A stretch of DNA of 22,433 nt. Source: a virus. Its lineage: Duplodnaviria > Heunggongvirae > Uroviricota > Caudoviricetes. The notes beneath the pieces were generated by a model. It did not search any database. It worked only from the letters and a program-made list of their open reading frames with translations, and was not told the origin of the DNA. This document shows, in pieces, positions 17,726-19,338 of the stretch. Position 1 is the first letter of the stretch. Every line of letters begins with the position of its first letter. Made by a program: the position numbers and the translations under genes. Location of the stretch: the IMG/VR virus record IMGVR_UViG_2627853732_000005; one strand, 5' to 3'.

Positions 17726-18091
17726 TCATTGATTCACCTCCTGCGGTGGTTCCGGTAGCGGCATCCAGTGAGTTGAGCTCTCTACTTCAACGCCGTCTTT
17801 GTCCACAAAAGCCATCTTATTCCCGCCACGAGTGGGGCAAAAAACCTTATCCCAGGAACCGGGGAATACATTCCCGAGATCATCGAGAAGAATCACATCG
17901 CAATATTCAGCAGGAACTGCATCACTACAGCTTATCCAGCCAGCCGGAGCTACCGGAGAGTTGCCAGCCTTACGCATGGCCATTTCCACGATTTCAACCA
18001 TATCTCCTGGTGGAATTTTACAAAGTTGCCCAATACATTTCTGCTGCCTGGCATATTCGAGAATGTGCTCCAGTTTGGTTCGATTAATCAT
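17726..18091 (-). CDS. DUF551-type phage protein
   Basis: 121 aa ending in THWMPLPEPPQEVNQ, the hallmark C-terminal motif of this family as I recall it. Confidence 0.7.
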   Translation of the reverse strand: MINRTKLEHILEYARQQKCIGQLCKIPPGDMVEIVEMAMRKAGNSPVAPAGWISCSDAVPAEYCDVILLDDLGNVFPGSWDKVFCPTRGGNKMAFVDKDGVEVESSTHWMPLPEPPQEVNQ

Positions 18092-18756
18092 TATTTATCT
18101 CCCTTAAGCATGGCAGCGCGGCAGGCGTTCCAGCCATCAACATAATCAAACGTATTACTATCGTTTGGCCCGATTTCATCCGGCACTATCGGCTCTGGTT
18201 GGATAGTGACGTTGGCAAAGGCAGCACGCAAACCGGTTTTAATTTCTTCGATTTCATCAGAGCCAAGCGATGAATCTGACAGTGCGTGATGGAATGCGTA
18301 AGCCATGTCGTCGTTTACTGCAACCGGCACTGCCGGCGCTGCGTAAAGCGGTGTTATATCTGCCCGAAAATCACATGCTTTATGCAGTCGTACCCAACAC
18401 TCAACTTCCGCTTTGTCAAAATATATAGCAGTGAACGTATTAGATTCCTGGTCAACTTGAGTAAACGTCACCTTCCACGCTACAGCTACGGCTTTCCATC
18501 CATCAGGTTGTCGCATTCGCGGGGCAGCATAAAGCTCATGCATTCCATCAGGCAGCGAGTGACCCACATACTCACCGAACCCGTCAATACACATGCCCCC
18601 ATCTTCAACAATGCATTCCGCTACAGGCTCTGCTTCCAGTGATGCCAGAGCGATAAGCGCCAGTTCACGAATTTCACCGCCGTCTATATCGTCAATATCA
18701 TCGCGGCCAGAAATGTTAGCCAGCCATTGCAGTCGCTCTTTGGTAATAGTGGTCAT
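18091..18756 (-). CDS. hypothetical strongly acidic phage protein (221 aa)
   Basis: Start ATG overlaps the HNH stop (ATGA); stop overlaps the DUF551 start. Manual count is about 39 D+E against about 17 K+R. Internal repeat of LYAAP. Possibly Ead/Ea22-like, not confirmed. Confidence 0.6.
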   Translation of the reverse strand: MTTITKERLQWLANISGRDDIDDIDGGEIRELALIALASLEAEPVAECIVEDGGMCIDGFGEYVGHSLPDGMHELYAAPRMRQPDGWKAVAVAWKVTFTQVDQESNTFTAIYFDKAEVECWVRLHKACDFRADITPLYAAPAVPVAVNDDMAYAFHHALSDSSLGSDEIEEIKTGLRAAFANVTIQPEPIVPDEIGPNDSNTFDYVDGWNACRAAMLKGDK

Positions 18757-19118
18757 GCCGTAGCCCCTTCTTGATATTTTTCAAACCAGAACACAACCGG
18801 GTCAGATTTCATTTCAACCAATCCCATACGAACCAGCGCTTTGCCTTTCCCGGACGCAAGGAATTCACGACGACCATCACTGATAATTCGTCGATAATCT
18901 TCCAGGCTACTGCAATGCTTGTGCAGATTGCATGGGTGGCATGCTGGTACCATGTTGGATATATCGTCACGTTCCTGGTGAAGCATATTTCCATCAAAAC
19001 GAATGACCGGTTTTACATGGTCTGCATGCCACTTTTCGCCAAGTTCGCAGCCGCAATAAGCGCAGCGACCACCGAACTTCATGCGCAGTTCTGCACGTTG
19101 TTTTTTCGTCAGTGCCAT
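18753..19118 (-). CDS. HNH endonuclease (121 aa)
   Basis: Start reassigned to ATG at 19118 (MALTKKQRAELRMKFGGRCAYCGCELGEKWHADHVKP...VPACHPCNLHKH). C-x2-C, H-x-D-H, N and C-x2-C-N-x-H-K motifs are present. Confidence 0.75.
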   Translation of the reverse strand: MALTKKQRAELRMKFGGRCAYCGCELGEKWHADHVKPVIRFDGNMLHQERDDISNMVPACHPCNLHKHCSSLEDYRRIISDGRREFLASGKGKALVRMGLVEMKSDPVVFWFEKYQEGATA

Positions 19119-19119
19119 A

Positions 19120-19338
19120 TCAGCTTTCCTTATACGGATTAATTTTATTGTGCAGTGTGTTGAATGACGCCCATACCACGTCGTTATACAATTCAATAAC
19201 TGGCTCAATTATTTTTCCGATTATCCAGACAAAAATTAGCGGGGATATCGGTGTCATCAACACGATAAACAGAATGAGAAACAGGAATTCTGTTGTTCTA
19301 CTCTTTCGCGGATATTTTTTTCTAAATAATGTAACCAT
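19120..19338 (-). CDS. small predicted membrane protein (72 aa)
   Basis: ATG at 19338 preceded by AAGGGGGG; one hydrophobic helix (FLFLILFIVLMTPISPLIFVWIIG); its stop is 1 nt before the HNH start. Confidence 0.45.
   Translation of the reverse strand: MVTLFRKKYPRKSRTTEFLFLILFIVLMTPISPLIFVWIIGKIIEPVIELYNDVVWASFNTLHNKINPYKES

Follow-up and report, generated by a model that had tools for sequence, protein, structure and literature searches.

The window analysed in the present work is the whole 22,433-nucleotide (nt) stretch of the IMG/VR virus record IMGVR_UViG_2627853732_000005, assigned to the Caudoviricetes. The object of study is a chain of small minus-strand genes, coding for a DUF4014 peptide, an HNH protein, an acidic protein of 221 amino acids (aa) and a DUF551 protein, which the original prediction, made from the letters alone, had proposed as one undescribed, translationally coupled cassette. 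Direct reading of the sequence confirmed the four open reading frames (ORFs), their coordinates and their strand, as well as the presence of a hairpin terminator downstream of them (Table 1). The predicted chaining by stop/start overlaps holds for the HNH and 221-aa genes, which share ATGA, and for the 221-aa and DUF551 genes, which share TAATG; the DUF4014 and HNH genes do not overlap, being separated by a 1-nt spacer in the form TGAtATG. The chain had been described as ending 80 bp before the hairpin, but this gap is filled by a fifth ORF, indicated here as S27, whose start shares ATGA with the stop of the DUF551 gene and whose own stop lies 4 nt before the hairpin.

Overlap of stop and start, or a spacing of at most 1 nt, is thus found at all four junctions of the resulting five-gene chain, and a purine-rich Shine-Dalgarno sequence precedes every start. 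As far as the sequence can tell, the chain is a tightly packed run of five small genes and a candidate translationally coupled operon. Tight packing is usual in operons of this kind: in the early-left operon of the Stx phage ArgO145, 10 of the 17 consecutive junctions overlap or are at most 1 nt apart, so that the stop/start chaining of the window genes is ordinary.

Table 1. Features of the five-gene chain and of its surroundings, in window positions.
Feature	Positions	Strand	Description
DUF4014 gene	19338-19120	minus	72 aa; stop TGA 19122-19120
HNH gene	19118-18753	minus	121 aa; ATG 19118-19116; stop 18755-18753
Acidic 221-aa gene	18756-18091	minus	no Pfam family
DUF551 gene	18091-17726	minus	121 aa
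S27	17729-17646	minus	fifth coupled ORF; 27 aa; hydrophobic peptide MTWPEAFTTVGIAMAVALVVYSICRWG
Hairpin	17609-17641	either strand	G+C-rich, A/T runs on the flanks; reads as an intrinsic terminator
hok/sok type I toxin-antitoxin	17116-17440	minus	hok ORF; sok, Rfam RF01794, 118 bits, 17266-17440
5'-truncated upstream gene	19431-19771	minus	118 aa in intact relatives; phrog_1621
IS1 copy b	19772-20539	plus	simple insertion; 10-bp target duplication AACTCATCTT
IS1 copy a	16256-17023	plus	downstream of hok; adjacent 135-nt deletion relative to loci free of insertion sequences (IS), such as L004

Conservation of the chain as a unit was evaluated in 5,426 complete E. coli genomes, a region being counted as whole when at least 80% of it was covered. 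The whole 2.2 kb region reaches this coverage in 2 genomes, and any match to it is found in 2,502; the corresponding values are 217 and 1,308 for the DUF4014 and HNH pair, 2 and 246 for the 221-aa gene, 2 and 1,496 for the stretch formed by DUF551 and S27. None of 180 matching phage records contains the whole region, and the whole 221-aa protein is present in no deposited phage genome.

Gene neighbourhoods were compared in the best 80 IMG/VR loci anchored on the HNH protein, which is 96-100% identical among them. DUF4014 is directly upstream of the HNH gene in 57 loci and absent in the other 23. The downstream side is occupied by a single 114-aa gene followed by S27 in 31 loci, by other Ead/Ea22/DUF551-type mosaic genes in 21, by the arrangement of the window in 16 (plus one decayed copy) and by unrelated genes in 10. 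The alternative 114-aa gene matches four PHROGs of the 221-aa protein (660, 5117, 60 and 3323). Where the arrangement of the window is present (16-17 copies), nucleotide identity to the window is 98.3-100%, and these copies therefore represent one lineage rather than an independent conservation. At least 1,000 contigs, named from Shigella sonnei, S. flexneri and a few E. coli, carry each of the four annotated proteins in exact form and with the same family annotation, a distribution which matches the clonal spread of a prophage remnant.

These counts do not sustain the proposal of a four-gene cassette forming one module, since the full set exists only as near-identical copies and its genes reassort elsewhere; the same order was not observed in independent lineages. 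The genes do co-occur in other genomes, a point on which the original prediction had staked itself, but never independently of recent shared ancestry. Homology of the 221-aa or 72-aa protein to characterised structural or replication proteins, the other outcome named there as contrary, was not found.

The positions at which the genes reassort were located by DNA comparison. Breakpoints of identity fall at ~19131, 13 nt before the HNH start, and at 18735-18740, 16-21 nt into the 221-aa gene; within this gene they are found at linkers (~18620, 18519 and 18315-18333) and at its end (18102-18106), and further on at the conserved GWISCS motif which opens the DUF551 domain (17922-17965) and at the S27 start (17729). 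They coincide with gene starts, gene ends and domain linkers. Among the 80 IMG/VR loci, every readable gene following HNH starts at ATGA and nearly all begin with MTT, followed by a divergent body. The same gene types are also found in the int-to-exo early-left region of ArgO145 and in the yfdPQR (CPS-53-like) cluster of UTI89. Stop/start joints mark module exchange in lambdoid phages, and the overlaps of the chain are short conserved joints of this sort, at which genes are swapped by recombination.

The HNH gene, in particular, is either present or absent as exactly one gene, the polymorphic site lying between TGAt and ATGA(C/G)CACTATTACC. In the HNH-less allele of E. coli 319 (...AAGGAAAACTGAtATGAGCACTATTACC...; locus L084, 2480-2550) DUF4014 is directly followed by a DUF551-type gene; in the occupied allele of the window (...AAGGAAAGCTGAtATG(HNH)...GGCATGACCACTATTACC...) the HNH gene occupies precisely the space between TGAt and ATGACCACTATTACC. 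UTI89 has the same HNH gene after an Ea22-type gene ending with KGE and a stop codon, within the yfdP-yfdQ-yfdR cluster (L085, 2440-2910). At least three prophage backbones carry the gene, at the nin position of a Qin-like prophage, in the exo-xis region of a Shiga toxin (Stx) phage and in the CPS-53-like yfdPQR cluster. The block measures ~400 nt (~19131 to 18735; indel site 18731-19131) and usually precedes genes starting with MTT[IFN]T.

Relatives of the HNH protein, 36-91% identical, are found in species-representative genomes of Enterobacter, Serratia, Yersinia, Pantoea, Edwardsiella, Acinetobacter and others. Their neighbours are varied: none has an adjacent DUF4014 and only ~6 have an Ead/Ea22-type neighbour. 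Most of them still overlap the following gene by ATGA, whichever gene this is. Two relatives of ~50% identity are assigned to Actinomadura (L095, a 609-nt contig) and to a Lachnospiraceae metagenome-assembled genome (L098), assignments for which contamination or mis-binning is possible.

The HNH protein belongs to the HNH family PF01844 (28.2 bits, cut-off 21.4), and the complete motifs originally reported were found by direct reading: C19-x2-C22, H31-A-D33-H34, N55 and C60-x2-C63-N64-x-H66-K67. Its strongest family match is phrog_2118 (8.8e-57), together with a weak likeness, limited to the core, to endonuclease VII-type PHROGs; the nearest solved chain in a PDB sequence search is 4H9D, at an E of 0.058 only. 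It does not qualify as NinG/Rap (PF05766): with 18.2 bits it stays below the cut-off of 25.4, and only positions 93-147 of the 193 in the profile are covered. In PADLOC-DB v2 its core matches PtuB (best E 3.2e-8, residues 6-79) and PDC-M01B. Taking NCBIfam and PADLOC together, there is only a sub-threshold HNH-core likeness, to IscB, a retron HNH protein, PtuB and PDC-M01B. The search for PADLOC-DB v2 defence systems detected only these generic matches, with no partner genes, and the other four proteins of the chain remained unmatched. None of these core-only matches makes the HNH protein a member of the NinG, PtuB, IscB or retron systems, and the partner genes of such systems are absent. To judge from its residues, the product is probably a free-standing minimal HNH nuclease of the Cys4 zinc (beta-beta-alpha-metal) type.

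The other original family guesses, DUF551 and a membrane peptide, also proved right, the HNH, DUF551 and DUF4014 scores all being above the Pfam cut-offs. The DUF551 protein matches PF04448 at residues 51-117 (69.9 bits, cut-off 22, 3.4e-19). It is made up of an N-terminal helical module (residues 1-45, phrog_24004), followed by the all-beta DUF551 domain (~50-112), modelled as a small beta barrel with a predicted local distance difference test score (pLDDT) of ~83; resemblances of the barrel to Tudor/SH3-like folds are insignificant, and the PDB sequence search gave nothing useful for this protein. The DUF4014 peptide fits PF13198 over residues 1-71 of 72 (90 bits, cut-off 23.2, 1.3e-25) and phrog_1832 (1.5e-44),; its N-terminus is basic, and residues 19-37 form its single strongly hydrophobic segment. 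The literature search retrieved no papers on DUF4014, and the origin of the PHROG label "released from the phage upon host infection" could not be traced. The G+C content of the DUF4014 gene is 35.6%, against ~48-49% in its neighbours, which suggests either a different origin or a composition shaped by the membrane segment.

S27 is preceded by the Shine-Dalgarno sequence AGGAGGTG. Fourteen DNA variants from related loci contain 27 variable site-states, 16 of which are at codon position 3; 17 are synonymous and 10 are conservative hydrophobic replacements, and one variant carries an in-frame two-codon deletion. This pattern of substitution indicates a translated gene under purifying selection. 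Many prophages of E. coli, as well as Stx phages, contain the ORF, and in many loci it is ATGA-coupled to differing upstream genes. A few GenBank entries include exactly this peptide (P0167), which is unannotated in both of the inspected RefSeq records that carry it. DUF4014 and S27 are both predicted to be, and probably are, small single-pass membrane peptides.

The 221-aa protein contains 39 aspartate and glutamate residues against 17 lysine and arginine residues, exactly as counted in the original prediction, with an isoelectric point (pI) of 4.34 and a net charge of -22. Alignments divide it into at least five sub-modules (~1-44, 45-79, 80-140, 141-190 and 191-221), with linkers located exactly at the boundaries: EPVA, found once, and LYAAP, found twice, at residues 75-79 and 136-140. 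The same linkers bound the sub-modules in relatives of the protein, and may be intragenic recombination joints.

A search among 5.8 billion proteins returned 3,289 matches. Full-length relatives were found only in Shigella and a few E. coli, and the other matches cover pieces only. Pieces 1-46 and 134-219 are fused to DUF551, at 84-96% identity, in proteins of 264 aa; pieces 28-79 and 137-217 are present in proteins of the Ead_Ea22 family PF13935 (P0044, P0054 and P0093), and further pieces in DUF550 proteins. In phage records, single sub-modules are contained in genes annotated as EaA, including those of SJ46 (Salmonella host) and of Yersinia and Klebsiella phages. Judged by these alignments, the 221-aa protein is a string of shuffled sub-modules, common to proteins annotated as EaA, Ead/Ea22-like and DUF551, and the 221-aa/DUF551 gene pair reads as the split form of proteins which are single chains elsewhere. 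The two products are probably members of one modular acidic family, composed of an N-terminal helical module and portable beads.

The 221-aa protein itself has no Pfam match at E ≤ 0.1, hence neither DUF551 nor PF13935, which leaves it outside the Ead/Ea22 family proper; it has no NCBIfam match and no match to PDB sequences better than E 0.84. A structure model, built from a 37-sequence alignment, has a mean pLDDT of 52.6: only residues 88-138, folded as a beta-beta-alpha-beta unit, reach ~75, and long linkers are of low confidence. Comparison of this low-confidence model with the PDB by Foldseek gave 0 matches at E ≤ 1e-3. A likeness of residues 88-138 to the Dmd antitoxin of T4 and RB69 (E 1.2-2.6, template modelling score ~0.5, ~50 residues) was taken as due to chance. 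These residues correspond to window positions 18343-18495, and a gene with the same sub-module is called "RNA-binding protein" in one phage record.

The composition of the protein had originally been likened to that of DNA-mimic anti-restriction proteins. Neither its sequence nor its fold places it in ArdA, Ocr or similar families, and its model resembles beads on a string, at low confidence, so that this idea is not upheld. Moreover, acidity is reported for Ea22 C-terminal domains, and the sub-modules are shared with such proteins; for these reasons the acidity lends no support to DNA mimicry. Among the papers listed in the literature search, no title tied Ea22-like proteins to anti-defence, and the term "Ea22-like" occurred in none of them. 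The statement of the original prediction that a function cannot be assigned still holds.

E. coli FDAARGOS_944 carries a prophage collinear with the window, with 99.7% identity and four single-nucleotide polymorphisms over 17021-19771. In this intact relative the following genes are found in order on one strand: cI/Cro-type regulators; replication genes of YdaU type, DnaC type and DUF977; the 118-aa gene; DUF4014, HNH, 221-aa, DUF551 and S27; hok; DUF1367/DUF1364/DUF1133; four tRNAs; lysis genes. The DUF1367/DUF1364/DUF1133 genes correspond to the Q-type antiterminator block of the K-12 prophages DLP12 and Qin, and a location between replication genes and a Q block is that of the lambda nin region. 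The chain, which lies between the replication genes and the hok/Q-type block, is therefore assigned to the nin position. The hairpin after S27 resembles, by its position, an internal early-operon terminator.

Immediately downstream of the chain, and outside it, lies hok/sok; the originally noted hok toxin is thus confirmed, its sok partner being recognised by Rfam, and the same order is found in related loci (L001, L083 and L084). On the other side, IS1 copy b interrupts the upstream gene after nt 16, with loss of the start codon, and the remainder is identical to positions 13932-14272 of L001. A frameshift in this gene was considered and rejected, the gene being only 5'-truncated by IS1. Loci without the insertion join 19771 straight to 20540, and several IMG/VR loci contain the same segment, in the same backbone, with neither IS1. 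Delivery of the cassette by a composite IS1 transposon is ruled out by these IS-less loci, by the target duplication proper to copy b and by the deletion adjacent to copy a. Two IS1 copies do flank the segment, as originally described; the bracketing is incidental, resulting from independent in-situ insertions in a collinear prophage, and is consequently uninformative about the cassette.

A promoter scan of the minus strand between 17000 and 19900 detected no promoter-like site, the total count being no higher than in shuffled sequence. With IS1 copy b standing between the chain and all that lies upstream, and with no local promoter detected, the window genes probably persist as a relic, silent or weakly expressed, cut from the upstream operon by IS1.

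A group of four tRNA genes precedes the lysis region (13983-14290, minus strand) and is collinear with the tRNA-Ile/Arg/Thr/Gly cluster in the prophage of FDAARGOS_944. Copies or fragments of IS3-family elements, with ORFs of 100 and 272 aa, are located at 1489-4516, 12777-13540 and 20743-21899; their BLAST neighbours name IS600. The density of IS1 and IS600, combined with the exact protein matches, indicates a Shigella chromosome.

Taken together, the chain is in all likelihood an ordinary, lineage-specific set of independently exchangeable accessory genes of nin/exo-xis type, contained in a decayed Qin/Rac-like Shigella prophage and cut from its promoter by IS1. It would form the distal portion of a lambda-like prophage's variable accessory-gene region, whose genes, in an intact relative, would be read as part of a long early operon. 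TGAtATG, ATGA and TAATG would be ordinary phage operon packing, doubling as recombination joints, and DUF4014, HNH, 221-aa, DUF551 and S27 would be the present combination of exchangeable genes in one lineage, detached in the window from the upstream operon by IS1. To go by the analogy with Ea22 of lambda and Stx phages and with YfdS, the 221-aa and DUF551 products are most likely binders of host or phage proteins that modulate early development.

Some observations weigh against this explanation. An Ead/Ea22/DUF551-type gene is ATGA-coupled to HNH in 68 of the 80 IMG/VR loci, and 57 have DUF4014 upstream, so that a looser functional association may exist. All five ORFs are intact amid an IS-riddled prophage, which could reflect selection or just recent insertions. 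The chain may be expressed through IS1 read-out or through a promoter that went unrecognised, and the role given to the acidic proteins follows from family analogy.

Three other explanations were weighed against the same data. A dedicated defence or anti-defence module, with the 221-aa protein as DNA mimic or decoy and HNH and the membrane peptide as its partners, would account for the pI of 4.34 and the net charge of -22; hypervariable early regions often house phage counter-defence genes, and the bead-like hypervariability of the protein is compatible with an arms race. However, ArdA/Ocr families are matched neither in Pfam nor in NCBIfam, PADLOC finds only a generic, PtuB-like HNH core with no PtuA partner, and the modelled protein, with its pLDDT of 52.6, seems unlike the rigid, charge-patterned surface of known mimics. 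Its acidity is a feature already reported for Ea22 C-terminal domains (PMC10834534), and the genes of the supposed module do not travel together, which makes this explanation highly improbable. A smaller unit, formed by DUF4014 and HNH as membrane peptide and nuclease, for example an exclusion or abortive-infection pair, has some neighbourhoods in its favour: the two genes are adjacent through TGAtATG in 57 of the 80 IMG/VR loci, 217 complete E. coli genomes carry them together, and the pair has moved as one block, 93% identical between the window and ArgO145. Yet HNH is found with no DUF4014 in 23 of the 80 loci and in prophages of UTI89 type; conversely, many O157-type genomes have DUF4014 directly followed by a DUF551 gene, with no HNH; no HNH relative outside E. 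coli/Shigella has an adjacent DUF4014, and DUF4014 has no PADLOC match; such a pair is quite improbable.

Alternatively, HNH might be a free-standing, homing-type selfish endonuclease, inserted at TGAt/ATGACCAC... before Ead/Ea22/DUF551-type genes, the other genes being bystanders. The gene-sized, precise polymorphism that distinguishes E. coli 319 from the window, the presence of the block in at least three phage backbones, usually before MTT[IFN]T genes, and the 96-100% identity of the HNH proteins of the best 80 IMG/VR loci, while their flanks vary, are all in line with this view. Lambdoid mosaicism, however, generally produces just such indels at gene boundaries, with no need of a nuclease; distant HNH relatives adjoin unrelated genes, and the 121-aa protein has no recognisable DNA-targeting domain of the kinds that are usual in freestanding HNH homing enzymes. 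Homing is thus unlikely, and it would in any case be compatible, for the remaining chain, with the explanation preferred here. A broader scheme is held to be distinctly unlikely: HNH would be a homing-type endonuclease, or a nuclease paired with the following gene, having as target or partner the conserved 5' junction (TGAtATGACCACTATTACC) of Ead/Ea22/EaA/DUF551 genes. It would help to drive bead shuffling across lambdoid, P22-like and CPS-53-like phages, and the shuffled proteins would be specificity-switching binders in phage-host or phage-phage conflict.

With the chain read as an ordinary set of exchangeable genes, little changes for biology. A caution follows: in phage DNA, stop/start overlaps, acidity and flanking IS are no evidence of a module, in the case of the overlaps because these are themselves the joints at which the mosaic recombines. 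Of the by-products, three may deserve to be retained: S27, the presence/absence polymorphism of HNH at a conserved junction, and the sub-module map of the 221-aa protein.

The chain is of an already known kind, namely a typical piece of the lambdoid variable early region. It has the same place as the lambda nin region, between replication genes and Q, and likewise consists of tightly packed, small, non-essential genes with internal terminators. NinG, encoded in that region, is an HNH-like structure-specific nuclease, and a weak NinG match is found over the core of the window HNH; the latter, however, has 121 aa against a profile of 193 positions, the match is sub-threshold, and no other nin genes are present in the segment. 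With Septu PtuB and other defence HNH proteins the window protein has the HNH core motif in common, but there is no PtuA ATPase neighbour, the match is limited to the catalytic core and the protein is about half as long as the PtuB profile.

A close match is offered by phage ArgO145 (HNH gp11, DUF4014 gp12, 114-aa gp10), where the DUF4014-HNH block is ~93% identical at the nucleotide level, with identical junctions, and an unannotated S27 ORF, 95% identical, is found downstream. In ArgO145, however, one 114-aa gene replaces the 221-aa and DUF551 genes, and the block lies in the early-left int-to-exo region, followed by a toxin-antitoxin pair other than hok.

The 221-aa protein can be compared with Ea22 of lambda and its variants in Stx phages (exo-xis region): both come from early, non-essential genes of a hypervariable region, and both have a mosaic multi-domain make-up and an acidic C-terminal part. 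The mosaic architecture of Ea22 proteins and their acidic C-terminal domains, with DUF551 as a portable domain, have been described (PMC10834534, PMC8614690), as has the splitting of Ea22-type proteins into adjacent genes (PMC8614690). Sub-modules at ~137-219 of the 221-aa protein are found at 84% identity in PF13935 proteins, and its close relatives end with K/R-G-E, a tail common to the Ea22 family (PMC7093339, PMC10834534). In contrast, the 221-aa protein has no PF13935 match and no detected central coiled-coil signature, its tail is KGDK rather than KGE, and its gene is at the nin position, while Ea22 is located between exo and xis. For the Ea22 of lambda and Stx phages a pro-lysogenic phenotype, with no partner known, is reported (PMC10834534, PMC7093339, PMC8614690).

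A further term of comparison is YfdS, which contains the same DUF551 domain as the 121-aa DUF551 protein and is encoded in the yfdQ-yfdR-yfdS-yfdT cluster of the K-12 cryptic prophage CPS-53. Its deletion mutant is sensitive to H2O2 and, when oversupplied with YfdQR, YfdS contributes to the inhibition of replication initiation (PMC4776307). These phenotypes are unrelated to a nuclease, and the window segment has neither yfdQ nor yfdR; in UTI89, on the other hand, an identical HNH gene is found in the yfdP-yfdQ-yfdR cluster, directly before a DUF551-type gene.

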